DNA of 64,000 nucleotides from Escherichia coli (lineage in GTDB: Bacteria; Pseudomonadota; Gammaproteobacteria; Enterobacterales; Enterobacteriaceae): NCBI RefSeq assembly GCF_050920415.1, contig NZ_CP169309.1. One strand, written 5' to 3'. Of the stretch, positions 35,065 through 63,767 are shown piece after piece. A program made the translations under genes and the position numbers. Under the pieces are notes generated by a model. It was not told where the DNA came from, ran no database searches, and saw nothing but the letters and a program-made list of their open reading frames with translations. Positions within the stretch are counted from its first letter, which is position 1. Each line of letters starts with the position of its first letter.

Positions 35065-35899
35065 GATTATCCCCTTCTCCTGCGTTGACGGGCCAGGCAG
35101 TCGTCTGGCTCTGTTTTTACAGGGCTGCAATCTGCGCTGCAAAAACTGTCACAATCCGTGGACGATGGGGCGCTGTAATGATTGCGGTAAGTGCGTGCCA
35201 CAGTGTCCGCATCAGGCGTTGCAGATTATTAACAGCAAAGTAGTGTGGAACGCAGCCGTCTGCGAGCAGTGTGATACCTGTCTGAAGATGTGTCCGCAAC
35301 ATGCCACGCCGATGGCGCAATCCATGAGCGTGGATGAGGTGCTTAGACATATCCGCAAAGCGGTGCTGTTTATCGAAGGGATAACGGTAAGCGGCGGCGA
35401 AGCCACGACCCAGCTGCCGTTTGTGGTGGCGCTGTTTACTGCCATCAAAAACGATCCGCAACTGTGCCATCTCACCTGTCTGGTGGACAGTAACGGCATG
35501 TTGAGCGAAACCGGCTGGGAAAAATTACTCCCAGTGTGCGACGGCGCGATGCTCGACCTCAAAGCGTGGGGTGGCGCGTGCCATCAACAGCTAACCGGAC
35601 GCGATAATCAGCAGATCAAGCGCAGCATTAGTCTGCTTGCCGAGCGCGGCAAACTGGCAGAACTGCGTTTGCTGGTAATCCCAGGCCACGTGGATTATTT
35701 GCAGCATATCGATGAGCTGGCGGCGTTTATCAAGGGTCTTGGCGATGTTCCGGTACGCCTGAACGCGTTTCATGCTCACGGCGTGTATGGCGAGGCGCAA
35801 AGCTGGGCGAGCGCCACGCCGGAAGACGTTGAGCAATTGGCTGATGCGTTACGGGAGCACGGGGTGAGCCGATTAATATTTCCGGCGCTGTATTTGTGA
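35036..35899 (+). CDS. yjjW: glycyl-radical enzyme activating protein (radical SAM) YjjW
   Basis: 287-aa ORF with CxxxCxxC radical-SAM and ferredoxin-like Cys clusters, matching K-12 YjjW; overlaps the yjjI 3' end. Confidence 0.93.
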
Positions 35900-35915
35900 C
35901 ATGGCGGATGCAGCC

Positions 35916-36114
35916 TACGGTTCGGCACAGACCTGTAGGCATGATAAGACGCGTCAGCGTCGCATCAGGCATTGTGCGTCGACTGCCGGATGCGGTGTGA
36001 CGCCTTATCCGGCTTACGGTTCGGCACAGACTTGTAGGCATGATAAGACGCGTCAGCGTCGCATCAGGCATTGTGCGTCGACTGCCGGATGCGGTGTGAA
36101 CGCCTTATCCGGCT
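35916..36114. repeat. BIME: tandem duplication of an approximately 99-bp unit, each unit containing two REP-type palindromes
   Basis: Unit tacggttcggcacagacctgtaggcatgataagacgcgtcagcgtcgcatcaggcattgtgcgtcgactgccggatgcggtgtgacgccttatccggct at 35916-36014, repeated at 36015-36114 with 2 differences. Confidence 0.8.
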
Positions 36115-36127
36115 TACGAAGGGCAGA

Positions 36128-36910
36128 CTACCCACGAACGTTAAACACCGCATACGTGTTATTAAGCAACACTTCGGCAATCTCATCCGCGGGTTCCGGG
36201 CGTAACTCGCACAGCACGGCAAACACACGGGCGGCCTGTTCAGGGCGATTAGGCTGCCCCTGAAAACCATTGAGCGGCATATCTGGTGCGTCGGTCTCCA
36301 GCAACATCGATGCCAGCGGCAGCTTTGCGATGACATCGCGGGTTTTACTGGCGCGTGGATAGGTGATAGTACCGCCTACGCCAATTTTGTAGCCCAGCTG
36401 CACAAACCGTTCGGCCTGTTGCAGGCTGCCAGAAAAACCATGAACCACACCAGTGCGTGGCAAATTTTGGCGTTTAAGATGCATCGCCAGTTTGTCGTGC
36501 GTGCGCCGTGAATGAAGGATCACCGGCAGATCGTAGCGTTTCGCCAGTTTCAGTTGTTCATCAAGCAACCACTGCTGCCTCTCAAATTGCGGATCGTCAC
36601 CAAAGAGATCCAGGCCGATCTCCCCCACCGCCACCACCTTCGTCGGACGTCTTCCCAACGCCTGCTGTAACTGATCCAGCGATGCATCGTTATGTTTTTC
36701 CAACATCCCCGGATGGAACCCTAAAGCGGCATACAGCGGTTGATAATTTTCCGCTAACGCCTGCACGCGGGCAAAATTTGCCGCCTCGGTGGCCGGAACA
36801 ATGATCTTGCCTACGCCCGCTTGTGCCGCGCGTTGCAGGCTGGCCTCTTCATCGCCACTAAACGGCGGGAAATCAAAATGGCAGTGGGTGTCGATAAAAC
36901 GGCAAATCAA
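36128..36910 (-). CDS. yjjV: TatD-family metal-dependent hydrolase/DNase YjjV
   Basis: 260-aa ORF matching K-12 YjjV. Confidence 0.92.
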   Translation of the reverse strand: MICRFIDTHCHFDFPPFSGDEEASLQRAAQAGVGKIIVPATEAANFARVQALAENYQPLYAALGFHPGMLEKHNDASLDQLQQALGRRPTKVVAVGEIGLDLFGDDPQFERQQWLLDEQLKLAKRYDLPVILHSRRTHDKLAMHLKRQNLPRTGVVHGFSGSLQQAERFVQLGYKIGVGGTITYPRASKTRDVIAKLPLASMLLETDAPDMPLNGFQGQPNRPEQAARVFAVLCELRPEPADEIAEVLLNNTYAVFNVRG

Positions 36911-39389: not shown

Positions 39390-40976
39390 TTAATGCTCGC
39401 GAGTCTGGTGGAACTGAACGTCCGGATAACGTTCCTGTGCCAGGCGCAGGTTGACCATGCTGGTAGCGATGTAAGCGAGGTTATCGCCGCCATCAAGCGC
39501 CAGTTGGCTTTCGTTCTTACGCTTGAACTCTTCGAATTTCTTCGCGTCCGCACATTCTACCCAGCGTGCAGTGGCAACGTTGACTGACTCATACACTGCT
39601 TCAACGTTGTATTCGCTCTTCAGGCGCGCTACCACCACATCAAACTGCAGCACACCAACCGCACCAACGATCAGGTCGTTGTTGGAGATCGGACGGAACA
39701 CCTGCACCGCGCCCTCTTCGGAAAGCTGTACCAGCCCTTTGAGCAGCTGTTTTTGCTTCAGCGGATCTTTCAGGCGGATACGACGGAACAGTTCCGGCGC
39801 AAAGTTCGGGATACCGGTGAACTTCATCATCTCACCCTGGGTAAAGGTGTCGCCGATCTGAATAGTGCCGTGGTTGTGCAGACCAAGGATGTCGCCCGGA
39901 TACGCTTCTTCAACATGCGAACGGTCGCCCGCCATAAAGGTCAGCGCGTCGGAGATCACCACATCTTTCGCGGTGCGCACCTGGCGCAGCTTCATACCTT
40001 TTTCATATTTACCAGATACCACACGCATAAACGCCACGCGGTCGCGGTGTTTCGGGTCCATGTTGGCCTGAATTTTAAATACGAAGCCGGTAAATTTATC
40101 TTCGCTCGCCTCTACGATACGGGTATCAGTCTGACGCGGCATCGGCGCAGGTGCCCACTCTACCAGGCCATCCAGCATATGATCGACGCCGAAGTTACCC
40201 AGCGCAGTACCAAAGAACACTGGAGTAATTTCGCCCGCAAGGAACAATTCTTTGTCGAACTCGTTAGACGCGCCTTTCACCAGTTCCAGTTCGTCACGCA
40301 GCTGCTGTGCCAGATCTTCACCAACCGCAGCATCGAGATCCGGGTTATTCAGCCCTTTAACAATACGGACTTCCTGAATGGTGTGACCTTTACCGCTCTG
40401 ATAGAGATAGGTTTCGTCTTTATAAAGGTGGTAAACGCCTTTAAACAGCTTGCCGCAGCCAATCGGCCAGGTGATCGGCGCACAGCCGATTTTCAGCTCG
40501 TTCTCAACTTCATCGAGCAGCTCCATCGGATCGCGGATATCACGGTCAAGTTTGTTCATAAAGGTGAGGATCGGCGTATCGCGCAGACGGGTAACTTCCA
40601 TCAGCTTACGGGTACGATCTTCAACACCTTTTGCGGCGTCGATAACCATCAGGCAGCAGTCCACCGCCGTCAGGGTACGATAGGTATCTTCCGAGAAGTC
40701 TTCGTGCCCGGGGGTGTCGAGCAGGTTAACCAGGCAGTCGTGATACGGAAACTGCATCACAGACGTGGTAATGGAGATCCCACGCTGCTTTTCCATCTCC
40801 ATCCAGTCCGACTTAGCGTGCTGGTTGGAACCACGGCCTTTTACTGTACCGGCAGTCTGAATGGCCTGTCCGAACAGCAGCACCTTCTCGGTGATGGTCG
40901 TTTTACCGGCGTCCGGGTGAGAAATAATTGCAAAGGTTCTTCTTTTCGCTACCTCTGCGGCCAAAAGGCTTGTCAT
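39390..40976 (-). CDS. prfC: peptide chain release factor 3, with a non-K-12 N-terminus
   Basis: 528 aa from the ATG at 40976 ([27 protein letters not shown]...); from residue 9 onward it matches K-12 RF3 as I recall it (K-12 begins MTLSPYLQEVAKRR). Confidence 0.93.
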
Positions 40977-41162
40977 AATTGTTGTCTCTTTGATTATGTA
41001 CAATCATATGTACAAAGAAAAATTCATGCCGCTGATTGTACATTTTGGAGGTATCAGAGCATAGCAGAACATGATCAGTAGGTGTATTTGTAGCCAAAGA
41101 ACATTTGTACATGCAGCAATCTTTACTCTATTGACACTGTTTATTCATACAGTAAAAAATAG

Positions 41163-41182
41163 TGCTGTATACAAATACAGTA
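41163..41182 (+). promoter_or_regulatory. LexA (SOS) box upstream of the dinI-like gene
   Basis: tgCTGTatacaaatACAGta matches the CTGT-N8-ACAG LexA consensus, 14 bp upstream of the dinI-like ATG. Confidence 0.75.
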
Positions 41183-41195
41183 TAGAGGGATTTTT

Positions 41196-41444
41196 ATGCG
41201 TATTGAGATCTGCATAGCCAAAGAGAAAATGACTAAAATGCCAAGCGGTGCTGTTGATGCGTTAAAGGAAGAATTAACTCGGCGCATCAGTAAGCGTTAT
41301 GACGATGTAGAAGTAATCGTAAAAGCCACCAGCAATGACGGGCTTTCTGTTACACGCACCGCAGATAAGGATTCTGCAAAAACATTTGTTCAGGAGACTC
41401 TGAAAGATACTTGGGAGTCTGCTGACGAGTGGTTTGTTCACTAA
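41196..41444 (+). CDS. DinI-family protein (prophage-encoded)
   Basis: 82-aa [14 protein letters not shown]...[15 protein letters not shown] resembling E. coli DinI in size and C-terminal motif; GAGGGA ribosome-binding site. Confidence 0.85.
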
Positions 41445-41694
41445 TAGACACGTAAAATCGGTAACGGCTGGAAATAATTCAATACTCGCACTATCGGAAG
41501 TTCACCAGCCAGCCGCAGCACGTTCTTGCATACGACGTGCCTGCGGTTTCAACTCCCGCCAGCTCCACCACTTTTGATAGGACTGCAACCGGACAGCGGC
41601 AATAAAAACAGCCACTTACGGACACTGACCAGACAGTAAGCGGACTTAAAAAAGACAAAAATATACACGCAAAATGCACGTGCATTTCAAAAAA

Positions 41695-41728
41695 GCCTCT
41701 GATTGTGAAGTCAGAGGCTTTTCTATTT
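41695..41728 (+). terminator. intrinsic terminator on the plus strand
   Basis: gcctctga-ttgtgaag-tcagaggc hairpin followed by ttttctattt. Confidence 0.6.
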
Positions 41729-41768
41729 GTAACTAAGAGTAACAATTCAACATAACGCAACCTACCAA

Positions 41769-42341
41769 TTACGTCACGTCAAACGCTCTGATTGAACGCA
41801 AATCATCCAGATTATTCAGTTGTTCCTTCATCTCGCGCTGGCGTTCGTGGATTTTAAAGCCCTCCGCCACCATGGCCACCATCATGGCATCGTTCAGCGC
41901 AATAAGTTTCTCCCTGGTCAGTATGACGTTGTTATTATCCGCATCAGTCCAGAAAAAACCATCCGGAAGCAGCCCGGCCTGCGCTGTTGCAACCACGGGC
42001 GCAAGGCGTGACTGCGAGGTTTTTCCGCCATCAAAACGACGGCCATCAAACGTGAAAATAAACTCAACGTTTTCCTGACTGTCGCGCCATGCCTCAATTT
42101 CCCGCCTTTTGGCATCCTTTGCCGCTGCAATAAGTTCCGGCGTGACGGTGAACGGGGCGATTTCGCCCCATTTCCCGCTTTGCAGCTCCTGCCAGACATG
42201 CTGGCCTGTCGGGGCCATATCATCCTGTATGGCGGTATACAGGACGAACTCCGTTTCACCTTCAAATAACACCTCGCAGTCAACCGCACCATTTTCAAGA
42301 TAATGCGCGTTTCTGATGCCTTTCACCGCTCTGATTTTCAT
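41769..42341 (-). CDS. putative tail fibre assembly / chaperone protein
   Basis: 190-aa ORF immediately downstream of the side tail fibre gene, the position occupied by tfa in lambda; assignment is by position and size, sequence is not lambda Tfa-like. Confidence 0.55.
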   Translation of the reverse strand: MKIRAVKGIRNAHYLENGAVDCEVLFEGETEFVLYTAIQDDMAPTGQHVWQELQSGKWGEIAPFTVTPELIAAAKDAKRREIEAWRDSQENVEFIFTFDGRRFDGGKTSQSRLAPVVATAQAGLLPDGFFWTDADNNNVILTREKLIALNDAMMVAMVAEGFKIHERQREMKEQLNNLDDLRSIRAFDVT

Positions 42342-42355
42342 GTCTTATTTCCTTA

Positions 42356-44446
42356 TTACTCAATGCGTACAAAAAGACCGATATAGCCACGCGTTGTATC
42401 GTGACTAATGCGGGTCCCCGAAAGCGCCGTGTAACGACCGGGGAAGTTGTATTCACCAGCACCGCCAATCACAACCTGCGGTGAGGATGCGTATGTCCCT
42501 GTATCGCTAACCCGTGCACTCATAGCCAGAGGGCCAAGACGGGAACCCGGCACAATATCACCGAGCCCCAGAGACGCATCTGCACCAAAACTCTCCCCCT
42601 GATATGCCGCCATAATCGGCACACCAACGGCCGGGTATTTATAATATGAGCCTGAGCCCGCCATCCTGGACAGCAGGTACGCCAGTGAATCTCCGTCGTA
42701 TACAACTACCCGCGATGACATGTTCCAGCTGTTATCGCTGTCGTTGTACCGGTACTGCATATAGTGAATACAGTGTTCACCCTGATAATACTGGTTGTAG
42801 CACATCAGGGTTTTAAATTTGCGGACTGTGTCGGATTCACTGTTGGCGTACGGTGACCACATCACATCAATAATGCCGTTAAATTGCGTGGTACCGGTAA
42901 GCAGTTGCGAGGAGTCTGTAATACTGACCGCATACCGCCCCGGCGTGACTTTCTTCAACCACTCAACGAAATCAGACAGCCCCTCAAACGCCAGAGCGTC
43001 AGTGCTGGTGAATGCCTGTCCAAACCCATACATCCCGGACAGGGCCAGCCTGCCCGGTGTGCGGTCACGGATATCACTCTGGGGTTCCATCGTCGCAGCC
43101 GCGTTCAGCTCAAGCTCCGTGCGCATGGCTTCAGCCGTGTCATGCGCCAGTAATGCGCGGCCCTTCTCTGACAGCAGAGACAGTGAGGCATTCCCGTCTG
43201 TATTGAAGTACAGAAGATTATCTGCCCGTTGCGTCAGTGCGCTGATTGCCGTTAAGACGTCATTAAGCGGTTGTTTGCCTGCCAGCGCGTTTGTGATTGT
43301 CGTCGCAAAGTTCGGGTCATTGCCCAGCGCCGCAGCCAGTTCGTTCAGGGTGTCCAGAACTTCCGGTGACGAATCAACCAGCGCAGCAAGCAGTTTGCGC
43401 ACAAACGCCGCGTTCGCTGCTTCCAGACCGGCGGCATCATCCTGTGGGGTTGGGGTGGTTGGGGTGCCGGTGAAGGCCGGGCTGTCCAGTGGCGCTTTTG
43501 TTTTCGTCTCCTCCATGACGGTTTTGACAGCCTTTGGCGTGGCAGCCAGTTCCTCGCTGTCGTTATCCGTGTCACTACAGAGTTGCACCAGACCTTTTTC
43601 TGTCGTGGAGGCATTTGTTGCATTCAGGTCATCAACTATCTGCTGCGTCTCATCCCTGTACTGTTTCGCTTCCTGCGCATTGTCTGCACCTGCATCCTGG
43701 CTGGCTTTAGCCTGTCGGGCGTATTCGGCGGCACTGTTTTTGTGCCCCAGCGCCGCATTTGCCGACAGTTCTGAACTGGTCGCTGCTGATGATGCGGCAT
43801 TATGATAAAGGCGGGCGCGTTCGGCGGCATCGACTGATTCGTCCCGCGCTGTGCCTGATGACTGTGCGCTGTTTTCTGCCTCACCCGCAAAACGTTCCGC
43901 ATCATCACGGGCCGTTGCGGTTGTCGTCACATCCTGTGCCGTCTGCTGTGCGTTTCCGGCTGCAGCTTCGGCGCTCTGCTGTGTCTGATTTTTTAGCTCT
44001 TCTGCCTCATCCTTACTAACCGCCGCAGATGTTGCTGCATTGATTGCATCATCAGCAGCTGTTTCTGCTCTCTCCCTGTCACTGACCACCTGCTCAGACA
44101 AGCGAACAACGGTATTTACCATTTCCTCAAAACGCTTCATTACCTCAGGGCGTAAATCACCCTCCTTTGGTGCATCCAGAAAAGCATTCAGCGTATCCGG
44201 CTCATCTGTCGGTGCAACATAAATTTCCCCCGCCTTTACAGGAGGATGCCCTGAGCGGGACAAAAATACATCATAAAATCCCGGCTCAGCATTAATAGTA
44301 TACCCGCCATCACTTCCCGTAAGACAGGTTGCCACAATATTAACCACAACTGTCGGACTGGTTCTTCTGGCTCGCAATTCAATCGCACAGTTTACGACAG
44401 GCTCACCTGCTCCGTCCTTCAGGACACCTGAAATCTTTACTGCCAT
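42356..44446 (-). CDS. stf: side tail fibre protein (Stf-like)
   Basis: ATG at 44446 gives MAVKISGVLKDGAGEPV..., the conserved N-terminus of lambdoid side tail fibres; long Ala/Ser/Thr/Gln-rich shaft; about 696 aa. Confidence 0.85.
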   Translation of the reverse strand: MAVKISGVLKDGAGEPVVNCAIELRARRTSPTVVVNIVATCLTGSDGGYTINAEPGFYDVFLSRSGHPPVKAGEIYVAPTDEPDTLNAFLDAPKEGDLRPEVMKRFEEMVNTVVRLSEQVVSDRERAETAADDAINAATSAAVSKDEAEELKNQTQQSAEAAAGNAQQTAQDVTTTATARDDAERFAGEAENSAQSSGTARDESVDAAERARLYHNAASSAATSSELSANAALGHKNSAAEYARQAKASQDAGADNAQEAKQYRDETQQIVDDLNATNASTTEKGLVQLCSDTDNDSEELAATPKAVKTVMEETKTKAPLDSPAFTGTPTTPTPQDDAAGLEAANAAFVRKLLAALVDSSPEVLDTLNELAAALGNDPNFATTITNALAGKQPLNDVLTAISALTQRADNLLYFNTDGNASLSLLSEKGRALLAHDTAEAMRTELELNAAATMEPQSDIRDRTPGRLALSGMYGFGQAFTSTDALAFEGLSDFVEWLKKVTPGRYAVSITDSSQLLTGTTQFNGIIDVMWSPYANSESDTVRKFKTLMCYNQYYQGEHCIHYMQYRYNDSDNSWNMSSRVVVYDGDSLAYLLSRMAGSGSYYKYPAVGVPIMAAYQGESFGADASLGLGDIVPGSRLGPLAMSARVSDTGTYASSPQVVIGGAGEYNFPGRYTALSGTRISHDTTRGYIGLFVRIE

Positions 44447-44511
44447 ATTCACCCCACAAAAAAGCCCGCCTGAACCCGGCGGGCTGTCATAACACTGTGT
44501 TACCTGGCTAA

Positions 44512-45111
44512 TCAGAACTTATAACCGACACCCACGATGAAACCGTCAGTGCGCCAGTCGCCACTGCCGGAGCCTTCATAAGCAATATCAATAGCCACGG
44601 ATTCGGTCGGGTTAAACTGCACGCCAGCTCCCCACGCCAGAGACGTGTTGCTGTGGCGACCGTCATCACTTCCGGTCAGCACATCGTGCGTTTTCCCCTT
44701 ATTGTCAGTTACGCGGAGATAATCCCCGGAGAAAGTCGACACACGGCTGTAAGCCACACCCGCCATCGCATACGCGCTGAACCATTCATTCACGCGCACA
44801 GACGGCCCCGCCATTACGCTGAACCAGCGGTTACGAACGGAATCTTCATGCCAGCGGGTATCGCTGTAACGGGTCAGCTGGCGATTCTTGTCTCCTGCAT
44901 AGCTGAATGACGTCACCATACCCAGTGTGTCCGTAAACTCATAACGGTATTTCACGTTAATCCCGTTCAGATCATCGCTGCCGGGAACGTTCGTCGAGAC
45001 ATGAAGATACCCCGCGCTCAGCGTGGACTGATGTTCAGACGCCCATGCAGGCGCACCGGATAAGGCCAGACAAATGGCTGCGGACAAAATGGCGGCATAA
45101 AGTTTACGCAT
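44512..45111 (-). CDS. lom: Lom/Ail-family outer membrane beta-barrel protein
   Basis: 199-aa ORF with signal peptide and C-terminal ...GYKF, between J and stf as in lambda. Confidence 0.88.
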   Translation of the reverse strand: MRKLYAAILSAAICLALSGAPAWASEHQSTLSAGYLHVSTNVPGSDDLNGINVKYRYEFTDTLGMVTSFSYAGDKNRQLTRYSDTRWHEDSVRNRWFSVMAGPSVRVNEWFSAYAMAGVAYSRVSTFSGDYLRVTDNKGKTHDVLTGSDDGRHSNTSLAWGAGVQFNPTESVAIDIAYEGSGSGDWRTDGFIVGVGYKF

Positions 45112-45177
45112 AATTACCTCTCGCTTTTCTGCAATAAAAAAGGCGTCATTTCTGACGCCCGTTATGGGTTATAAAAT

Positions 45178-48100
45178 TCAGCTGATACTGATACCTGCTG
45201 TGGATTTCTTCATCACCACAACCAGCAGATCGCTGATACTGGTTGTTGGTGTCCAGTTATTCGCTCCTGATGAAGATACGGTGAATGTCAGTGTCAGCGT
45301 CCCCTGTCCGGCAGGCATATCTATAACTGAGGAAAATACGCCCTGAGCATCCGTCGTGGACTGATTAAAAATCTCCTGACCATTGCGGGTCACTCTTAAC
45401 CGGCAGGTTGAATACCAGTATGACTGTTGGTTATTACTGTTGAAATTCTCATGCTTACCACCACGGAACAACACTGGCGGTATCATGACCTGCCGGTCAA
45501 ATTTCTGATCATCACTGATTCTTACCGTGATGGTGCCACTGGCATAACTGTTCGTGCGGGGGAAAGACTTGCTGACCGTTTTGACAATATCGCCTTCAAT
45601 CTGGTTGGCTGACAGTTTCCCCTTAATCTGACAGTTCTCATTTATCGTGACGTTGTTGAGCGTCCCGGAGTTCGCATTCACGTTACCGCTGATATCGGCA
45701 TTTTTAGCGGTCAGCTTTCCGTCCGGTGTCAGGGAAAATGCAGGAGGATTACCGCCGCTGGTAATGGTGGGAGCCGTCAGATATTTCAGGAACACTTCAT
45801 TCATGAATATCTGATCACCCTGACCAACAAACATCGGTTTTGTGTTGCCATTTGCAGGATTAATCATCGCAATCCTGTCTGCCGCCAGCAGCACCTGACT
45901 CTGCATGCCGTCGGGGGTGTTCTCAATACCGGCACCGATACCCGCAATATAAAGGCGACCATCCTGCATCTGCTGCAGTTTCACGGCCCACATACTGTTC
46001 AGGTTATTACTGGTGTCCGTCTGAACCTTTTGTATCTGCTGGATGGTGGCCTCCTGATCTCCCAGCTTCTGGTCCGTTGTCGTCATGATTTCACTGCTTT
46101 TTTGATCCACATACTGGCGAACCTGCGCTATCTGGCGTGCATTCTCCTCATTACTCTGACTGACCGTCTGCGTGAGTTCGCTGCTGACGTTATCCACTCT
46201 CTGGCTCACCTGTGATATACCCAGTGACAGCTCATCATTTTTTTTCGCAACCAGCTGTGTGAGGCTGTTTTCTGTCTCCCCGATTTTTTGGGTCACTTCA
46301 GCAATATCACTCTCTATCTGCTGATTGATCTCATCCTCCAGTTGCTCAACTTCACTGCGCAATGCCGAGGCATTAATACGATCGTTCAGCTCCTGCCCCA
46401 GCAGGGTGCTGTTTATTTTCCCTTCAAAAAAATTGAGATACACCTCAGCATCATTAACCGGCTGGCCAACAGCTTCCACAAACGCTGATTTACCGACGAT
46501 GTTCACACTGCGGATATAAAAGTAATAATCATGGCCCGGCCTGATATTAATACTGGCAGCTGTCCAGTACATCGCCGTACCAAGATAGCGGGCTGTGGTT
46601 TCAACCTGCCGGATATCCGTAATCTGATTTTCCGAGAACCAGAACTCAAACTGCACCGTCGGGTCATACACCGCAAGACGCGGGACTGCCGTTATCTGAA
46701 AATACCCCGGTATCAGTTCAATCTGTGACGGCGCTGCCGGGGCGTTAATCCGGAATGAGGTGGTGGCGGGTTCCCCCTGCTGGCCATAACTGTTTATCGC
46801 CCGCACCGTCAGGGTGTATTCCCCCAGTGGCAGACCACTGAAACGGTGCGCCGTGTCTGCAGTGATGGCGTTGGTCACCAGACGGCTGTCTTCACCGCTT
46901 CCACGGTTCAGGCGCAGACTGAAGCGCACACCCTTCACCACCCGCGGCGTGTCCCATTTCGCCTGCGCCAGATACTGGCCATCATCCGCGCTCACCTCCA
47001 CCGTGAGGTGCTGCACTGCCGGAGGAGTGACGCTGTTCAGGGAGCCGGACAGCGGCTCAAAGGTGGCCCCGTTATCCACAATGGCTTCTTTTTCCGGTAC
47101 GTGCTGCACCGCCGTGATGGCAAAGGTGCCGTCCGTGTTTTCCCGGATGGCCACACAGCGGAACAGGCGACGTCGAAGGCCGGGAATTTTCAGCCCCCAT
47201 ACCCCGTATGTCGCCACGCCATCAGGCAGGGCGCTGACCTGTATCCGGTCAGGAGCAGGCTGTGCCGTGATGTCCACACTCACCGGCTTACCGCTGCCAT
47301 TAATCAGGTTCACCGTGGCGGTACCGGTCTCCGGAAGCGTCACCTCCCGGTCCAGCGTCAGGGTGAGACTGGCGGCATCGATGTTCAGAATGCGCCCGCC
47401 GGTCAGGGTCCCGGCGTAGTCGTTATCACAGACTTCAATGATGTCACCGGGCGTGTGGCGCAGCCCCTGTGATCCGAGCGTGAAATCCACCGTCTGCGTT
47501 TCCAGCAGTTCGGTCTTTATCACCCACAGTCCGGCACGGTGAGCCTGACCGCGACTGGTACAGCCGAACGCATCCATCTTCAGCAGATTACGTCCGTAGC
47601 GCAGTATGGCTTCCGGGTCTTCCACCAGTTCAGTGGAGGTCTGCCAACCGTTCTGCGGGTCGGTGTAATTCACCTCCACCGCCGTGTGCCGGTCCTTCAG
47701 GGCGCTGAAGCTGTAGCGGAAGCCCACACCGTTATCATCCACCACCACATCGCTGTTGGTGTAGGGCCACACCACATCCGACGGGCGGTCCTGCACGAAC
47801 GTCAGCGTCTGCCCGTTCCATACCGGCATACAGCGCATCGCCGAGCAGAAATCACTGAGCACATCCCACGCCTTACGCTGTTGTGACAGGTACGCATTAA
47901 ACGTCATCCGCGGTTCGGTCCCCCCGAAGCCATCCGGCACCGGCTGGTCGCAGTACTGCGCAATGGCATACAGAGCCCATTTGTCCACGTCTGCGGCCCC
48001 CAGACGTTTCCCCATCCCGTAGCGCGGGTGGGTCAGCATGTCCCACAGGCACCAGGCCGGGTTGTTGCTCCAGGCCGGTTTCATACACCCGTCCCAGATA

Positions 48101-48873
48101 CCGCTGTAAGTACGTTTTTCCGGGTCATAGTTTGACGGCACCTGAATGATGCGACCGCGGATATGGTAGTTCACAGTTATCTGCTGACCGCCAAACTGCT
48201 CCGCATCCACCTGCAGGCCCACAATGGCCGTGTTCGGGTAGCACTGTTCCACATCGATGATTTCGGTGTATGACGACCACAGCGTTCTGTTCTGCAGCTG
48301 GTCCGTGGTGCTGTCAGCCGTCTCCCTGACCATCCGGATGTTAAAGGGGCGCTCAGGCAGATTATTCAGAATCACCGACGTCAGGTACTGCGAGGTGGTC
48401 TTACCGTTAATGGTGACATCCTTTTCCGTCACCCAGCTACCGTTACGCTGCAGCTGAATCAGCAGACGAACAGAAGCCGGATTACGGTCGCCCCTGGAGG
48501 TGGTCTCCACCAGTGACTGTACCCCGAAGGTGACCCGCAGGCGGTCAATGTTCGCGGACGTGATGGTACGCGTCACCGGCTTTGCCTTCGTCACTTCCAC
48601 ACCCAGCGCAGTTTCAGCCCCGGAGGACTCAAAACCTTCCGGCGGGGTCTGCTCCTGCTCCCCGGCGCGCCAGACGGCGGTCACACCGTGTATCACGGGA
48701 TTGCCGTCCGTGTCCGTCAGCGGGGTTTTATTCACCAGGATACTCTGCAGTCCCTTCACCGGGCCTTCTATCGGTCCCTCTCCAATCGCATCAATCACGC
48801 TCATCATCTGCGTGGACTTAAGATTGTCCTTTGCCTCAACTGGCGTGTGCGCCTTGCCGCCACCTTTTCCCAT
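45178..48873 (-). CDS. J: tail tip host-specificity protein J
   Basis: ORF 45178-48909; ATG at 48873 gives [37 protein letters not shown], lambda gpJ-like N-terminus; 1231 aa. Confidence 0.93.
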
Positions 48874-49116
48874 TGCCTCACCCTTTACTGTGATAACTGT
48901 TACGCACAAAAGAACAGGCCCCCCGGGGATGCCTGTATCATAATGACTGAATAAAAATTCTGAGTTTATTCACATTTCCGGAAACTGACGGTTGCAGGAA
49001 TAACTCCACATTTTTACAGTTCTTCAGCCTGATAAAGGCAATTGGTCAAAACTTAACTAATCAAGGTGACTATTCATTTCTCCCGTAATATTCGTGAGTA
49101 TTACGGGAGATTTTTT

Positions 49117-49761
49117 TTATCCTCTGCCGATAACCACCACTTTCCCGTCACCACCTTCATCACGGGTACTGATGTCCTGGGATATCCGTCGGGAACCAAC
49201 CAGCATTTCACCGTATGGCACCGGCACCGGATTACCCTGAGCAATCATATTGTCCAGCGAGGAAAAGTAGGTGTTCTGTCTGCCGTTATCCGTTGTCCGG
49301 TAATCCGGTGTTTTTGCCTTCGGGGCCAGCATCTGTGCCACCCCACCCAGCGCCATTGCAGTCCCCATGGCAAACATAATATTGCTGGCTGCAATACCGA
49401 TACCCGGCATCCAGATAGCTGCCGCAGCCAGCGCAACGCCAAGAACCGCCTGAAACACACCCCCACTTTTGGCTCCTTCAGTCCGGGGTACCAGATGAAT
49501 GACATCCCCCGGGCTCAGTGGCTCATGCAGTCGGGTCGATATCTGGTCCGGCGCAGTATCCTCACCGGCAATACGTACCCGGTACCAGCCTTCGGTCATC
49601 TGACGGCGGAATCCCGGCAGCTGCAGAGACAGCGCCCGGATGGCTTCCGCTGCCGTGTTCACATACAGGCTGAGGCGGCGGCCAAATCGTTGTAAATCCC
49701 CGTGAAGGCAGATGCGGACCAGTGGCGGTGATGCCAGACAGAATGCGTTCGTCGTTGCCAT
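49117..49761 (-). CDS. I: tail assembly protein I
   Basis: 214-aa ORF; ...ICLHGDLQRFGRR... and ...NTYFSSLDNM..QGN..PV.YGEM.VGSR resemble lambda gpI. Confidence 0.88.
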   Translation of the reverse strand: MATTNAFCLASPPLVRICLHGDLQRFGRRLSLYVNTAAEAIRALSLQLPGFRRQMTEGWYRVRIAGEDTAPDQISTRLHEPLSPGDVIHLVPRTEGAKSGGVFQAVLGVALAAAAIWMPGIGIAASNIMFAMGTAMALGGVAQMLAPKAKTPDYRTTDNGRQNTYFSSLDNMIAQGNPVPVPYGEMLVGSRRISQDISTRDEGGDGKVVVIGRG

Positions 49762-50402
49762 TTTTCAGAATACCTCTCCCGTTTACTCAGTTGTTCAGGT
49801 ATATGGTGAAGCAGTTCACCGTTACCGCAGTAAATGGCGGCGTGATTGGCCACCGATGCGCCAAAGCAGCACAGCAGGATATCGCCCGGCTGTGCAGAGG
49901 GCAGGGGCACCCGGTAAAAGCCCGTGGCCTCCATATTGTCCAGGTACAGGTTCTGGCCGTTGCGCCACCACTCATCCTCGCGCGCAAAATCCGGCAGCGT
50001 TATCCCTGCCAGATGGTATGCATCCCGGAACAGGGTGTAACAGTCCGTCACACCATGTTCAAAGCGCCGTCCGGTCAGGTGCGGCACACAGCGGAACTTG
50101 TGAATCGCCCCCCGGCAGACCAGCCACCAGGACAGGGCACTTTTCACCTGCAGCCGCCGGTCCGCCTCGCTCAGCCAGGGCAGACCACCGGGATGACTGT
50201 GGACCAGTGCCACAATCTCCCCCTGCATCTCTGCCCGCAGCCAGTCCTCCGGTGCAATACGAAAATATGCCTCAGGCTCTGCGGAGGTATTCACGCAGGG
50301 AAGATACCTGTCTCCCTCCGGCGTTCTCACCACGAAGCCGCACGACTCCGCAGGCGCACACCGCCGGGCATGCGCCAGAATCGCTGATTCAGTCTGTGTC
50401 AT
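49659..50402 (-). CDS. K: tail assembly protein K (Mov34/NlpC-P60-type)
   Basis: ORF 49659-50663 contains a K-like protein from the ATG at 50402 (MTQTESAILAHARRCAPAESCGF...HSHPGG...); 247 aa; overlaps the start of I by about 100 nt. Confidence 0.8.
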   Translation of the reverse strand: MTQTESAILAHARRCAPAESCGFVVRTPEGDRYLPCVNTSAEPEAYFRIAPEDWLRAEMQGEIVALVHSHPGGLPWLSEADRRLQVKSALSWWLVCRGAIHKFRCVPHLTGRRFEHGVTDCYTLFRDAYHLAGITLPDFAREDEWWRNGQNLYLDNMEATGFYRVPLPSAQPGDILLCCFGASVANHAAIYCGNGELLHHIPEQLSKRERYSEKWQRRTHSVWHHRHWSASAFTGIYNDLAAASACM

Positions 50403-50412
50403 AAAATGGGAT

Positions 50413-51111
50413 TTACTGCGAAAGTTTATTAATGGAAAGGAAACCGCCAAAATTAGCGACCATGCCGCGCATCTCACACCCGCGCATGCACTTGCTGCAT
50501 TTGTCCTTACGGATATCTGTGGTGGGTTTATCGAACTCATCCGCCACTGCCGGACCGTTATACCCGCATTCATCTCCCCGGTAATCCCACATACAGGTAT
50601 TCGCCAGCATAATGCGACCGGGAAACAACGCCCCGTCCGTCTCGGTCGGAGTGGCCAGCACAAACGAGGCCGTCATGGCCGTCAGCTCTGACATCTGCTC
50701 CACCACCCAGCGGTCGCTCAGCTCCTGCTCCGGGTCCGCCTCCGGATTGCCCGCAACGAAATTCACCGCATCCAGAAAACGCGCATACACCCGGCGGCGG
50801 ACCACCGTTGCCCCCACCAGACTCTGCAGGTCCTCCGCCATCCCGGTGACAAGGCCAAACAGATTGGACACCGTCAGCGACGGTCTGGCACTGCTGCCCT
50901 TCCCGTTCATCTCAAAGCCGCTGCCGTCAATCGGGTATGCCTGATATTCCCGCCCCTGCCAGGTCACCGGCTCCCCTTTTTCATTCAGCTCATTGCAGAA
51001 AAAATACCGCTCACCGCCCTGCACCGTCAGGTCGATTTCCCAGAGTACCACCCGCGGTGACTGCTCTGATTTAACCGACTCGTTAAGACTTTCTTCGTGG
51101 ATATCCTGCAT
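50413..51111 (-). CDS. L: tail tip assembly protein L
   Basis: 232-aa ORF, same length as lambda gpL, with conserved C-terminal Cys cluster. Confidence 0.9.
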   Translation of the reverse strand: MQDIHEESLNESVKSEQSPRVVLWEIDLTVQGGERYFFCNELNEKGEPVTWQGREYQAYPIDGSGFEMNGKGSSARPSLTVSNLFGLVTGMAEDLQSLVGATVVRRRVYARFLDAVNFVAGNPEADPEQELSDRWVVEQMSELTAMTASFVLATPTETDGALFPGRIMLANTCMWDYRGDECGYNGPAVADEFDKPTTDIRKDKCSKCMRGCEMRGMVANFGGFLSINKLSQ

Positions 51112-51440
51112 CAGTTCACCACCTGCTTAAACTCCGCGCTGAACTCAACGCGCAACATCCCGACCCGCGCAGACCACCCGGCACAGGTCACCTTTATCTG
51201 CCGGTATGCATAAGGCGGTGTCCACAGAAACGCCTTCCAGCCACCGTGCTCTGCCAGGAACGCCTCCAGATGCCGGGCCTCCTCCCGGGTCACGGAAAGC
51301 ATCACCCTGTATGTTTTCAGGTCAGCATTCAGTCCCGCCGCCATGCGCTGCGAATACCCGTCACCAAAACGCACTTCACGCACCGATGACTGCGAGTTCA
51401 CCTCCATATCCGGCTTCACTTTCCAGTGAAATGTTTTCAT
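51111..51440 (-). CDS. M: minor tail protein M
   Basis: 109-aa ORF, same length and position as lambda gpM. Confidence 0.9.
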   Translation of the reverse strand: MKTFHWKVKPDMEVNSQSSVREVRFGDGYSQRMAAGLNADLKTYRVMLSVTREEARHLEAFLAEHGGWKAFLWTPPYAYRQIKVTCAGWSARVGMLRVEFSAEFKQVVN

Positions 51441-53947
51441 CGCCCGCTCCCTGATAACATACCGCCATCACGTAACTGCAGCCGGAGCTCATCCTGCGCC
51501 CCCTTACGGGCCATGTCATACACCGCTTTCATCAGCTGCGGCCCCGCCTGTCCGTTGATACCGTCGTTCTGAATCACCACGTGATTGTTCTGATTAAAAT
51601 TAATGCCTTCCACCCGCCGCATCTGCGCCGGACTTCCGGCACCACCCACATAACCACCTTCCGCATAGCCATGCATCAGGCGGTACAGGTTGCCGACGCC
51701 AATCCGGCTGGTCGCCTCCTTCGTGAAGACAAACTCCCCGCGGTGAACAATCCCCGCAGGCTCGTATTTGCCGCCAGTACCTGTAAAACCACCACCGGCA
51801 AACCCAATGGCACTACCGATACTCCCGACAATCCCCACCATTGCCTGCTTAAGCAGAATTTCTGTCATCATGGACAGCACGGAGCGGGTGAAGCTGCGCC
51901 AGTTCTGTTCACTGCCGGTCAGCATCGCCGCCATATTCTGCGCAATACCATCAAAGGTCTGCGTGGCCGCGCTTTTAACCTGCGAAAAACTGTCCATGGC
52001 ACTTTCCGCCCACTCACCCCAGCCGGATTTCAGCCCGACCATCCAGCTTCCACGAAGCTGCTCCTCCGCAGACCAGGTGTTCTTCAGTGCAGATGTGGCC
52101 TTCGCCAGCGCATCCGGATTATCACCGTACACGTCACGAAGGCGCTGCTCTTCCGACTCCCGCTGCGCCTGACGGTCGGTGAGGCCGCGGGCTTTTGCGC
52201 TGATGGCGGCCTGCTTCGCGCTCTGCTGCTGTTCAAACCGCGCCGCCTGCTGTGCCAGCTCATTCAGCCGTTTCTGGTGTTCAACCTTGTCGCCCAGGTC
52301 AGCCAGCTGGCGTTTGTACTCCAGCGTCTCTTTCTCATGGGCCAGCAGCGATTTTTCCTGCCCGGATAACTGCCGTTTCGTGGCGGCCTCTTTCAGGACC
52401 GCATACTGATTTTCCGCTTTCCATAAATCACGGCGCTGCTGGCTGATTTTCTCATTCGCACCGGCATGCTTCTCCAGCGTCCTGAGCTCAGTTTCAAGCG
52501 CCAGCATGGCTGCATGCGCCCGGTCTTCCTGACGCTCCCCGGCTGACACTTTGACACCTGACGACTTCGGTTTTTTCAGCGTCGATTCATAATCCTTTTT
52601 CGCCGCCGCCATCAGCGTGTTGTAATCCGCCTGCAGGATTTTCCCGTCTTTCAGGGCATTATTCAGCTCTTCCTGCCGGTCAGTATATTTCTCCAGTGGC
52701 GTCAGCAGGCGCTCATACGCCTTCTGCGCCTCTCCGGTATACTTCAGCTGTGACGCCTCACGCTCAGCCCGGTCCCTTGCCACCAGTTCACCGGCTTTTT
52801 CCATATCCGACTGCAGCGTGGCTGCCGCCAGCCCCAGACGGGCATTTTCACGGTCATCCCATGCACCCTGAAGGTTGGCACGGAAAGAGGAGGTCTTTCC
52901 CCGGCGCTGACTCCGGCTCTGGTACCACTGCCATTTTTTATCCGCCTCATCAAATGCCTTCTGCGCACTGGCGAGCATATCCGCTGAGGATTCAGGACGA
53001 CCGATATCCAGGATGGCATCCCACATCAATTTGAATGCCTTCCCGGTTTTATCCGCCCAGGTTTCCAGCGTCCCCATGTTTTCTTTCAGGCGACGGGTCT
53101 GCTCATCAAAGCCTTTTGTGGCGATATCGTTCGCCGCCTGTAAGGCCCCTGCCTCATCACCCGAACGCTGCAGCTGCGTAACATACGCAATCTGCTCTGC
53201 CGTCACGTTACGGAACTGGCGCGCCATAGCCATCAGTCCCGACGTCGGGTCGGTGGTCAGCTTTCCAAAAGCCTCTGCAACCTTGTCCACTTCCACACCG
53301 GATGCAGAAGCAAAACGCGCCACACTCTGGTTGATGGCATCAAACTGTTCACCACCACGCACACCGGCATTCACCAGGGCTGCCAGTGACTCACTCGCCT
53401 GGTTAAACGTCAGCCCTGCTGCCTGTCCGGCTCTGGAGAGCGTCAGCATGCGAGCGGCAGTCAGTCCGGACTGATTACCGGAAAGAACCAGGGTTTTATT
53501 AAACGCTGAAAGCATGGAATCCCCCTGGTACCAGGCATACGCCAGCGCACCTGTCGCCACCGCCAGCGAGGTGACCCCGACCATCGGCAGGGTGATCGCA
53601 CCGGCAAGCCCCCTGAACATGGGGAGCATCCCGCCGAAGGCGTCCTTCACCTGACCGCCCTGTTGCAGCAGAATAAGCCAGGGATTCTGACCACCGGCAA
53701 GCTGCGTGGCGATATCCGTAAACTGTGCAGGCAGGGTACGCATGGCCGCTTTATACTGCCCGACGGAAATCCCGGCTTTTTGTGCAGCCAGCGCCTGACG
53801 GCTCAGGCCCTGTTCAACAGCACTGGCGGTTTTTCTGGCGTCGGTATCCAGTCCTGAAAAATGACGCCTTACCCGGCTTATCTGCTCATCGAAACGGACC
53901 GCATCCAGACTCAGGTCAATAACAAGATCACCAACCGGCTGGGACAT
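51437..53947 (-). CDS. H: tail tape measure protein H
   Basis: 836-aa ORF closely resembling lambda gpH along its length. Confidence 0.93.
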   Translation of the reverse strand: MSQPVGDLVIDLSLDAVRFDEQISRVRRHFSGLDTDARKTASAVEQGLSRQALAAQKAGISVGQYKAAMRTLPAQFTDIATQLAGGQNPWLILLQQGGQVKDAFGGMLPMFRGLAGAITLPMVGVTSLAVATGALAYAWYQGDSMLSAFNKTLVLSGNQSGLTAARMLTLSRAGQAAGLTFNQASESLAALVNAGVRGGEQFDAINQSVARFASASGVEVDKVAEAFGKLTTDPTSGLMAMARQFRNVTAEQIAYVTQLQRSGDEAGALQAANDIATKGFDEQTRRLKENMGTLETWADKTGKAFKLMWDAILDIGRPESSADMLASAQKAFDEADKKWQWYQSRSQRRGKTSSFRANLQGAWDDRENARLGLAAATLQSDMEKAGELVARDRAEREASQLKYTGEAQKAYERLLTPLEKYTDRQEELNNALKDGKILQADYNTLMAAAKKDYESTLKKPKSSGVKVSAGERQEDRAHAAMLALETELRTLEKHAGANEKISQQRRDLWKAENQYAVLKEAATKRQLSGQEKSLLAHEKETLEYKRQLADLGDKVEHQKRLNELAQQAARFEQQQSAKQAAISAKARGLTDRQAQRESEEQRLRDVYGDNPDALAKATSALKNTWSAEEQLRGSWMVGLKSGWGEWAESAMDSFSQVKSAATQTFDGIAQNMAAMLTGSEQNWRSFTRSVLSMMTEILLKQAMVGIVGSIGSAIGFAGGGFTGTGGKYEPAGIVHRGEFVFTKEATSRIGVGNLYRLMHGYAEGGYVGGAGSPAQMRRVEGINFNQNNHVVIQNDGINGQAGPQLMKAVYDMARKGAQDELRLQLRDGGMLSGSGR

Positions 53948-54799
53948 ATCTCACACCTCCAGGAATCCCCGCTGAAGCCATCATTAATGCGACATCATCC
54001 TCACTGACATCCACCACATCCGCAGAAGGTGAAATATCGCCCCCTCCTTCCCCACCAAACCGGATGCCTCCGGCAAGTCCTGCCGCTTTCTGCATCAGCA
54101 TTTTTTCCTCATCCGCCATCTCCGTCTGCTCTTCCTCACGCCGGGGGGCAAGCAGACTGAAGTCCGAGGGATACATATCCGGATCGCAAAAAAACAGGCT
54201 GAGTACGGTGTACGTCAGCCCGGAAAAATGCATATCCAGTTGGGTATCGTGAAAATAATGCGTGCGGTAAAAATGTCGCCAGTCGGCATATTCGGTGGAT
54301 GTCATCCCGGCAAGCATGGCGCGCCAGTCAGGCCTCCCCATCTCACGCGCCAGTCTGAGGGCAAAATTCAGCTCGCCGTCGAAGACTTTCCCGCAGAAAA
54401 ATCATCATCAGTAAGCGCATTATTTTTCTCCACTTCGGTGATATCCGTATCCACATGAACAGGCTCACTCATCCCGGACAGACGCAACACCACGTCTTCC
54501 GCCCGGGCAATGGCATCAGCAGGCCAGGTGGTCAGGACTTCCTGCTCAATCTGCATCACAGCCTCATTCATTGACGGTGACTCCGTTTTCTGCGGATGGT
54601 TATGCCACAGGGACATCGCCACCAGAAACGCCCCGGTTCTGACAAGGTCTTCCACGCTCACCTGCAGGTTGCCGCTGGCTTCAGACTCTTCTGCCCGCCG
54701 TTTCAGGAGGGCAAGATGCTCTATACGCTGCAGCGCAGACAGTTCGGAAAGGGTGACGGACACACCGTTATATTCAAATTCTTCTGTTTTCAGAAACAT
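53928..54799 (-). CDS. GT: tail assembly chaperone G-T fusion, made by programmed -1 ribosomal frameshift
   Basis: T reading frame (ORF 53928-54341) is open upstream to the G GGA AAG slippery heptamer near the end of G; shifting -1 there reads ...GKVFDGELNFALRLAREMGRPDWRAM... into the T frame. Confidence 0.8.
54368..54799 (-). CDS. G: tail assembly chaperone G
   Basis: 143-aa ORF between V and H as in lambda. Confidence 0.88.
   Translation of the reverse strand: MFLKTEEFEYNGVSVTLSELSALQRIEHLALLKRRAEESEASGNLQVSVEDLVRTGAFLVAMSLWHNHPQKTESPSMNEAVMQIEQEVLTTWPADAIARAEDVVLRLSGMSEPVHVDTDITEVEKNNALTDDDFSAGKSSTAS
54386..54392 (-). promoter_or_regulatory. programmed -1 frameshift slippery site G GGA AAG (G to G-T)
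   Basis: Plus-strand ctttccc; on the minus strand gcG GGA AAG in the zero frame of G, 6 codons before the G stop. Confidence 0.8.
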
Positions 54800-54812
54800 G
54801 TATTACCTCCGT

Positions 54813-55565
54813 TTACCCTGCAGCGCCCGCTTCAGTAACGGTGACTTCAGCTACCGTGGCAAACTGACCATTACCGGAAATCACGGGGATACTCACTTTT
54901 CCAGCCTTAACCCCCGTCACAGTGATCACCATATCTTTCACAGCAATGGTTCCCGTTGACGGATCGGCGGAAACCGCTCTGAACGTCTTGTCGGTTGCAC
55001 TTTCCGGCTCAAAAGAAACAGTCAGGGTGGTTGCTTTCCCTTTTTCCACAGTACCGGATGTCGGCGTCACCTTAATTGCAGTGACCGGCGTAATTTCGCT
55101 GCGTTCTTCCGCCACGGAGGGTTTGCCCACGTTGGTAACTTTCACTGTTCGGGTGATCACTTCTTTCGCCGTCACGGCCTTACCGATACTGCTGACCCAG
55201 CCACGAAACACATCCACCGTGCCATTCGGAAAACGGATTTTATAGGCCCGGACATCGCCGCTTTCAAACCAGCCTATAAGCCCTTTCTGGCCTTCCTCTC
55301 CCGGTTTCCAGGCCAGCGTAAAACTGGTATCACCCGCAGATTTCTGTCCCTGCCCGGTCGCGGTCCAGTCCGCGTCTTCATCATCCAGGTAGTTATCATC
55401 GTAGGATTCTGCCGTCATCTCGCCGGGTGTCAGATCCTTCACCTTAGCCAGTCGCTGCCAGTCATCGTCTGACAACGGGTTTGCATAAGCATCACCCGTG
55501 CCGGTGTAAACCCACAGTGTGGTACCGGCACCTTTTACCGGCGCCAGGGGATTTGGTGTTGCCAT
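54813..55565 (-). CDS. V: major tail protein V
   Basis: 250-aa ORF; N-terminal tail tube domain plus C-terminal Ig-like region, lambda gpV-like. Confidence 0.92.
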
Positions 55566-55572
55566 ATCGTCC

Positions 55573-55968
55573 TCACATCTCGTATGTAATGGAATAAGTC
55601 AGATCTGCAGAACTCCACAATGCCATATCGTCATCACGACGATAGTCATAGCCCTGCGTAACCATCGTGGTAATCATGCCTGCCAGTGCAGGGATCGCCG
55701 CCATCGCCGGGTAAATCCGGCTTTCCATCCACTGATCAAGCTCTGAATCCGGTACCTGTGCCGGTAAAAACACCTCAATATGCAGTGTGGCCCGCCAGGT
55801 ATCTGCATCCAGCTCTTCACCGGTATACTCTGCATCCGTCAGATAAACCGCGACCGCGGGAAAATCCTCTTCGTCAAAAACAACGGGGCGACCATCAAAC
55901 AGCGTCGCCCCGTGTTCATGCTGCTCCAGTGCATCCAGCACTGCCCCGCGGATATCAGTATGTTTCAT
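55573..55968 (-). CDS. U: tail terminator protein U
   Basis: 131-aa ORF, same length and position as lambda gpU. Confidence 0.9.
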
Positions 55969-56498
55969 CGTTTTATCGCAATCCTCAGTTGTTGTTTCAG
56001 CGCGTATGCCAGTTCTTCTGGCAGGCGTTCACGCCGGATACGGTCAACGTTCTCATCAAACGCCTGTTTCAGCGGGGCCGCCATCGGGATTTTCACCACA
56101 TCAATGGGGTAACGGTTTTTCCCGGCCACACGCTGCATGACATGCCAGCGACCGTTTTTTAATCGCTGGATAAATGCCCGCTGATACCGATGCTGACCAG
56201 CTTTAAGTATGCTGTTCGGACGACGGCCCAGCCTCCTGATCCCCAGCTTAATCACAGGAAGATCACCGCGGTTAACGATAATTTTTGCATTCGGATTTCT
56301 GACCGTCGCCCTTTTCAGCCTGGCCCTTTCCTTTACCAGTTTCCGGCGTACCTTTGTCTCACGGGCAACCTGTGACGCCGACTGATTTATTGCCGTTGTG
56401 GCCACACGGTTAATGGCCATTGCTGAAGCAGCAGGAATGGCGTTTTTACGAACCCGGCTCAGATTATCAATCGCCTGATCAAGCCCTTTTATCGCCAT
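55965..56498 (-). CDS. Z: tail completion protein Z
   Basis: 177-aa ORF at the lambda gpZ position. Confidence 0.85.
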   Translation of the reverse strand: MAIKGLDQAIDNLSRVRKNAIPAASAMAINRVATTAINQSASQVARETKVRRKLVKERARLKRATVRNPNAKIIVNRGDLPVIKLGIRRLGRRPNSILKAGQHRYQRAFIQRLKNGRWHVMQRVAGKNRYPIDVVKIPMAAPLKQAFDENVDRIRRERLPEELAYALKQQLRIAIKR

Positions 56499-56513
56499 AA
56501 TTTCACCCTGCGT

Positions 56514-56867
56514 TTATCGTCGCCGGTTAACTGCGGGTGGTTGCCCACGGTTGAGCCAGATATAACAGCTGCCCCCGTCATCCGGAGAAACACGATCCGC
56601 CCAGAACATCTCGCCGTTAATGGTCAGCGTGTCTCCACGCCGCAGTTGCCGCACATCATCAGTCCGGACAAACAGGGACGGGCTGGAGCCTTCAACGCGC
56701 ACGCCCTGTCCGGCATAGCTGATATTTTCAGGGTCATCAAAAACACCACGTATCACAGCACCGGACTGCTCACCGGATGTCATGGTGGCTGACGTTCCCA
56801 TGTACCCGCGTATCGTTTCATCGGCGCGGGCAATGGCAGCATCGAACAGGTTATCGAAATCAGCCAC
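56514..56867 (-). CDS. FII: head-tail joining protein FII
   Basis: 117-aa ORF, same length and position as lambda gpFII. Confidence 0.88.
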   Translation of the reverse strand: MADFDNLFDAAIARADETIRGYMGTSATMTSGEQSGAVIRGVFDDPENISYAGQGVRVEGSSPSLFVRTDDVRQLRRGDTLTINGEMFWADRVSPDDGGSCYIWLNRGQPPAVNRRR

Positions 56868-56878
56868 AGTGCCTCCCG

Positions 56879-57277: not shown

Positions 57278-57318
57278 GGACTCCTCCACAGAGAGAAAAT
57301 GGCCCCGAAGGGCCATGA

Positions 57319-58344: not shown

Positions 58345-58398
58345 AAAAAAATCCCGTAAAAAAGCCGCACAGGCGGCCTTTAGTGATGAAGGGTCAGG

Positions 58399-58731: not shown

Positions 58732-58740
58732 AAACATCCC

Positions 58741-60040: not shown

Positions 60041-60060
<20 letters not shown>
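58741..60060 (-). CDS. C: head protease / scaffold protein C (ClpP/S49-like)
   Basis: ORF 58741-60207 contains a lambda gpC-like protein from the GTG at 60060 (V-TAELRNLPHIASMAFNEPLMLEPAYARVFF...); 439 aa. Confidence 0.9.

Positions 60061-63741
<3,681 letters not shown>

Positions 63742-63767
<26 letters not shown>

Follow-up and report, generated by a model that had tools for sequence, protein, structure and literature searches.

A lambdoid prophage junction in the 5' end of prfC in Escherichia coli, with a phage-borne surrogate start for the gene

In the 64,000-nt stretch of Escherichia coli DNA analysed here (contig NZ_CP169309.1; hereafter the window), a full-length prfC lies directly beside prophage DNA, which raises the question of where the phage ends, where the host gene begins and what the phage supplies to the gene. 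A sequence-only reading of this locus had placed phage DNA immediately 5' of prfC, and this is what we found: the dinI-like gene comes first, followed by the tail-fibre, Lom and J genes (Table 1). It had also called for an alignment with the K-12 junction; when 40800..41250 (reverse strand) was aligned, the interior of prfC is near-identical and the DNA 5' of the start codon is dissimilar, with zero similarity between the sequence upstream of the prfC ATG and the K-12 yjjG-prfC spacer.

At the protein level, RF3 begins with MTSLLAA in the window and with MTLSPYLQ in K-12, where the protein has 529 aa and the N-terminal sequence MTLSPYLQEVAKRR. From residue 8 of the window protein (K-12 residue 9) to the C-terminus, 520 of 521 residues are identical in the alignment to K-12 RF3, and the host-like prfC coding sequence is an intact ORF with one substitution compared with K-12. 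The earlier statement that the protein is K-12-like from residue 9 holds; in the DNA, the phage-derived segment reaches codon 16 and not codon 8. Codons 8-16 of the window differ from K-12 at 8 nt, all of them synonymous (8 of 8; GTA GCG AAA AGA AGA ACC TTT GCA in the window, GTG GCG AAG CGC CGC ACT TTT GCC in K-12), so the DNA breakpoint lies deeper in prfC than the amino-acid sequence implies.

In order to locate the breakpoint, four types of site were compared: attB from K-12 and two unoccupied strains (CE0021a and O55:H7), attP from 2H10 (LR595862), a free phage whose Int shares 99% identity with that of the relevant prophages, attR from the window and the closest genome, and attL from NZ_CP169399.1 and an O103:H2 strain. 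A 14-bp core, ATTATTTCTCACCC, is the sole segment common to attB, attP, attR and attL, and it occurs once in the window. On both sides of it the arms are swapped reciprocally. The left arm of attR matches attP of 2H10 (262/270), while its last 60 bp match K-12 at 32 of 60 positions; its right arm matches attB of K-12 (264/270). For attL, the left arm follows attB (266/270) and the right arm follows attP (230/240), and the base flanking the core on either side follows the expected parent. Moreover, when an attL query was compared with 5426 complete E. coli genomes, the match to unoccupied genomes stopped precisely at the final base of the core (query position 169). Two synonymous differences just right of the core (AAA ACG against AAG ACT) were considered as a recombination footprint, which we rejected because these positions vary among unoccupied strains and the P' arm of the phage is unrelated.

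From the above, the window junction is the attR site of a temperate siphovirus with lambda-like structural genes, in which strand exchange took place within the 14-bp core and a full-length prfC was rebuilt with a phage-supplied start; we put the probability of this reading at about 0.93. The prophage terminates within the 5' end of prfC, as had been proposed from the sequence, and it is the source of the surrogate N-terminus, the start codon, the ribosome-binding region and everything farther upstream. The core, however, which had been expected within about the first 30 nt of prfC, sits at nt 49-62 in the four-way comparison.

Table 1. Positions of the features at and around the prfC junction in the window
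Feature	Position	Strand	Description or basis
prfC (hybrid)	39390..40976	-	ATG at 40976; 528 aa product
Host-derived prfC segment	39390..40914	-	nt 63-1587 of hybrid gene, including stop codon
att core ATTATTTCTCACCC	40915..40928	-	nt 49-62 of hybrid prfC; codons I17 I18 S19 H20 P21, P-loop start
Surrogate coding segment, ATG + 15 codons	40929..40976	-	identical to attP of free phage 2H10
Prophage part in window	40929..64000	-	att end, tail, head and packaging genes; collinear with NZ_CP169399.1
Phage P-arm / divergent intergenic region	40977..41195	-	collinear with 2H10 attP, 262/270
Ribosome-binding-like AAAGAGA, purine-rich	40985..40991	-	9-15 nt upstream of surrogate ATG; putative function
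Weak promoter candidate TTTTCT-17-CATAAT	-10 at 40998..40993	-	consensus scan
Weak promoter candidate TATGCT-17-TACAAT	-10 at 41040..41035	-	consensus scan
TGTACA candidate integrase arm-type site 1 (TTGTACATAA)	40997..41002		motif match
TGTACA candidate arm-type site 2 (TTGTACATAT)	41009..41014		motif match
TGTACA candidate arm-type site 3 (ATGTACAATC)	41037..41042		motif match
TGTACA candidate arm-type site 4 (ATGTACAAAT)	41106..41111		motif match
dinI-like promoter-like site TTGACA-18-AAAAAT, near-consensus	41131..41160	+	scan
LexA-box-like palindrome CTGT-N8-ACAG	41137..41152		within spacer of dinI-like promoter
Second LexA-box-like palindrome CTGT-N8-ACAG	41165..41180		just after dinI-like promoter
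DinI-like gene, 82 aa	41196..41444	+	phrog_189 (RecA-filament-binding DinI), E 5.8e-31
Hairpin, perfect 14-bp stem, AAAAGCCTCTGA...TCAGAGGCTTTT, flanking A/T runs	41691..41722		between convergent tail-fibre-assembly and dinI-like genes
Tail fibre assembly	41769..42341	-	ORF; annotation of near-identical NZ_CP169399.1
Tail fibre	42356..44452	-	ORF; annotation of near-identical NZ_CP169399.1
Lom	44512..45111	-	ORF; annotation of near-identical NZ_CP169399.1
J (start uncertain)	45178..48909	-	ORF; annotation of near-identical NZ_CP169399.1

The surrogate segment of 48 nt, which encodes 16 residues, is present in the free-phage attP and the window attR alike, and 2H10 has the dinI-like gene, surrogate prfC start, core, P' arm and int as one contiguous block. 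In the 2H10 attP (L011:4710..4781), the surrogate start begins a 23-codon mini-ORF that spans the core and ends within the P' arm. The purine-rich AAAGAGA upstream of the surrogate ATG is similar to the native AAGAAGAAAG at the equal position in K-12, and the new tip of RF3 retains the (A/L)xE(V/I) pattern of native RF3 in Vibrio, Pseudomonas and Pantoea and of the surrogate carried by R997 (SXT/R391 family). We infer from these sequence comparisons that the surrogate is kept by selection and able to rebuild a working RF3, because codons 8-16 diverge only synonymously, the tip pattern is conserved and R997 has an analogous in-frame surrogate.

Adjoining the core on the left, the phage attP has an in-frame start, the 16 codons of the surrogate and a ribosome-binding region rich in purines. 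Integration thus detaches the native 5' end of the gene: the native promoter, ribosome-binding site and first 17 codons are severed and left at attL as a 24-codon remnant beside yjjG. Full-length prfC is restored, encoding an RF3 with a new 7-residue tip. In the mechanism we propose, the rebuilt gene would be transcribed from a promoter in the ~220-bp phage P arm, giving functional RF3. Phage 21 and e14 show a related solution at icd: each brings a surrogate for the gene end that it displaces, which leaves the host ORF whole. At icd it is the 3' end that is exchanged, and the gene keeps its own promoter and start, unlike in the prfC case.

The int end of the prophage lies beyond the window, so attL was inferred from relatives, and Int was examined in NZ_CP169399.1 (L003:25845-27101) and in the free phages which share attP. 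NZ_CP169399.1 is the closest complete genome, with 99.9% identity over the host DNA and the junction. Its prophage extends for ~47.6 kb to int and a prfC remnant, and its far end consists of int, the 69-nt remnant of prfC (24 codons, annotated as a pseudogene) and yjjG-rimI-holD. The earlier reading had suggested looking at the opposite prophage end for an integrase gene and a direct repeat of the att core; this nearest relative has both there. Within the remnant (L003:27346..27396), GCG is replaced by TCG (A11S), while GCG is found in K-12, the two unoccupied strains and the O103:H2 attL; this may reflect early decay without selection or a sequencing error.

In the nearest genome, Int is a tyrosine recombinase of 418 aa with the domains Arm-DNA-bind_3 (DUF4102, PF13356), Phage_int_M (PF22022) and Phage_integrase (PF00589), and it matches the phrog_1 integrase family (E 4.5e-74). 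Scanned against NCBIfam, Int scored below threshold with generic integrase models only, and therefore received no named equivalog. An excisionase of 64 aa (phrog_1553) is present in 2H10 and the nearest genome. This arrangement is not that of a lambda-type Int with xis-int transcribed toward attP: Int is DUF4102/P4-like and transcribed away from the core, and xis is separate.

The same Int, at 97-99% identity, is found in the free phages 2H10, Ayreon, cdtI and PhiR63_1 and in many Stx1a and Stx2c phages. Homologues with 51-83% identity exist in Vibrio diabolicus, Pseudomonas and Pantoea stewartii, and all those checked in these three genera are inserted at a single shared prfC codon; each lies 210-240 bp downstream of a prfC start that is truncated at the ATYATYTCNCAYCC core. 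The cargo of these elements is very different; for example, the Vibrio element carries a type I restriction system and a second integrase, and the Pantoea element carries phage-like small genes. Two records classed as E. coli plasmids, NZ_CP019281.1 (a 33.7-kb "plasmid") and NZ_CP135245.1, contain the same Int at 98%, and the P' arm is also present in NZ_CP019281.1. Excision of a prfC-type phage, or misassembly, may explain both records.

In the window, morphogenesis genes in lambda order adjoin the att site (terminase, portal, capsid, tape measure, J, lom, tail fibre and its assembly protein), and the dinI-like gene, divergent from prfC, is the last phage gene before it. Compared with 2H10, 81% of the window prophage part is covered at 87.7% identity. 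The description of this prophage as lambda-like thus suits its structural genes but not its integrase, which is of the DUF4102/IntSXT type and not lambda Int. No stx or cdt genes were seen in the window part, which ends before the Q-to-lysis region, or in the annotated prophage of the nearest genome, whose Q-to-lysis region holds tRNAs and a methyltransferase and no annotated stx. Elsewhere in the window (35730..36336), overlapping ORFs with repeated peptide motifs (MPDATLTRLIMPT...) are typical of REP/BIME-type intergenic repeats downstream of yjjV; they look ordinary and unrelated to the prfC junction.

The tail genes of NZ_CP169399.1 are 96.9-97.9% identical to those of the window, against 99.9% over the host DNA and the junction. 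Such mosaic identity would fit a history in which the junction was inherited: the att ends would stem from an older prfC prophage whose interior was later exchanged with other lambdoid phages through homologous recombination. A recombinational "phage shift at prfC" has been proposed for CC119 (PMC10132054). We regard this history as possible though on balance unlikely, and it would alter only the history, since the junction is still the product of site-specific integration and identical to free-phage attP.

The known elements closest to this prophage are the other prfC lambdoid phages, i.e. the Stx1 phage of O103, the Stx1a and Stx2c phages of CC119, cdt-I (Asakura et al. 2007), 2H10 and Ayreon. 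They are alike in Int (97-99%), attP and site, their structural genes are lambda-like too, and the replacement of the RF-3 N-terminus, ribosome-binding site and promoter is as described in PMC2323221; their cargo and mosaic segments differ from those of the window prophage.

[quoted passage not shown] They insert at the same position in prfC, and the element again gives RF3 a new N-terminus (as seen in R997) and, according to PMC8409611, also a promoter. Their Int is homologous and of the DUF4102 type; the phage Int shares 39% identity with that of R997 over 402 aa (E 1e-89), and the cdt-I phage Int and SXT Int were placed in one prfC-targeting "SXT cluster" by Smyshlyaev 2021 (PMC8138268). 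Between them, the window junction and the relatives in which Int was examined show traits of this cluster, namely a DUF4102 recombinase, the ATYATYTCNCAYCC core in the prfC 5' end, an in-frame surrogate and homology to IntSXT. R997 and the phage both have TGTACA pairs at two places, a short distance 5' of the surrogate ATG and in the int-side arm, and the small Xis of R997 belongs to a family related to phage Xis. However, SXT/R391 is a conjugative element while the window element is a phage with lambda-like head and tail genes, and the family proper has near-identical Int (~99%) and a conserved conjugative backbone, so that the phage, with Int at 39%, falls outside it. The gene order differs as well: in R997, int is directed at the core and xis lies between the two; the phage int faces the opposite way, with xis deeper in the prophage. 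The core identity of R997 is longer (...CACCCTGA) than the phage core, and its limits are approximate because the record NZ_KY433363.1 is linearised within the core with a small duplication. The join of this record falls within the att core, where the sequence is ...GCTATCATC followed directly by ATTATTTCC..., with two Ile codons duplicated, and it looks assembled from integrated ends and not like a true attP. Islands which target dusA, such as IMEVchUSA3, are also comparable; they differ from the prfC phage in both target gene and kind of element.

In the nearest genome, yjjG, rimI, holD and the native intergenic region are ~47.6 kb from prfC after integration, therefore transcription of prfC can start only in phage DNA, and any promoter which now drives the gene must lie in the divergent intergenic region of the P arm. 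Two consensus scans of this region (40977..41195), including a weighted-hexamer scan, yielded no convincing sigma-70 promoter in the orientation of prfC. The scans gave two weak candidates (Table 1), and we name neither as the prfC promoter. The failure to detect a strong promoter speaks for an alternative in which integration inactivates prfC, the hybrid ORF being silent or poorly expressed and tolerated as RF3 is non-essential, with surrogate codons that have no role. [quoted passage not shown] However, we consider inactivation improbable: the 8 differences in the phage-borne codons 8-16 are synonymous throughout, an in-frame ATG is maintained in free phages and, independently, in R997, and the prfC ORF has one substitution compared with K-12 and an intact annotation across hundreds of lysogens. 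In analogy with SXT, and in line with the intact gene and its synonymous-only divergence, a phage promoter may drive prfC. The last alternative, an ordinary host allele which abuts phage DNA by chance, might appeal to the variation of RF3 N-terminal tips among species, but it is refuted because free phage genomes contain this very 48-nt segment together with the 220 bp preceding it, contiguous with int, and because all unoccupied E. coli genomes have the K-12-type prfC 5' end.

The P arm also contains repeats which are candidate arm-type sites of Int, judging from their position and conservation across homologous att sites. All four matches to TGTACAWA in the 64-kb window lie inside 40995..41111; their total is not above chance (4 found, 2.35 expected), and only their clustering and their recurrence in homologous att arms are meaningful. 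TGTACA(A/T)A pairs are found in the int-side P' arm of the E. coli, Vibrio, Pseudomonas and Pantoea elements and of R997. In the phage as well as in R997, a further pair is found 18-20 nt upstream of the surrogate ATG.

On the other side of this region, the dinI-like gene is probably SOS-regulated, because two LexA-box-like palindromes lie in and just after its promoter-like site. The hairpin between the convergent tail-fibre-assembly and dinI-like genes looks like a candidate bidirectional terminator, which would shield prfC from read-through of the late operon unless the polymerase is antiterminated. These features allow a speculation, to which we give only a slim chance, that RF3 synthesis in lysogens depends on which state the prophage is in. 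Two of the four candidate Int arm sites are 20-40 nt upstream of the surrogate ATG, in the place where any prfC promoter or 5'-UTR must be, the two putative LexA boxes of the divergent dinI-like promoter lie 160-200 bp upstream, and the late tail operon points toward prfC, so that Int/Xis binding, SOS induction or Q-antiterminated read-through could alter RF3 levels.

The attR junction, in which prfC is joined to the dinI-like gene, was found in 647 of the 5426 complete E. coli genomes, with a DinI-like family protein annotated at the junction in 647 genomes, and the attL junction was found in 700 of 5426. About 12-13% of complete E. coli genomes thus carry the junction. The sequence-only reading named prfC as a known integration site of lambdoid and Stx phages, and the literature bears this out (PMC2323221, PMC10132054, PMC8065619): a review lists prfC among the Stx-phage sites (PMC8065619), and in CC119 it hosts Stx1a and Stx2c phages (PMC10132054). 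For SXT, integration in prfC with a new N-terminus and promoter is attributed to Hochhut & Waldor 1999 in PMC8409611. The feature described here is of a known kind and a known instance of it, with no new biology beyond published work.

In summary, this locus is a textbook case in which a phage targets the highly conserved P-loop start of RF3 and compensates with a surrogate gene start. The site in prfC is common to Stx- and Cdt-converting phages and to the SXT/R391 resistance elements, which makes the junction useful for prophage typing and annotation. Our comparisons suggest that the label "disrupted" is too strong for the hybrid prfC, which should not be so annotated, and that the 69-nt remnant at attL should be read as the displaced native start. 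If RF3 synthesis were indeed coupled to the prophage, termination fidelity could be altered in roughly one E. coli genome in eight.
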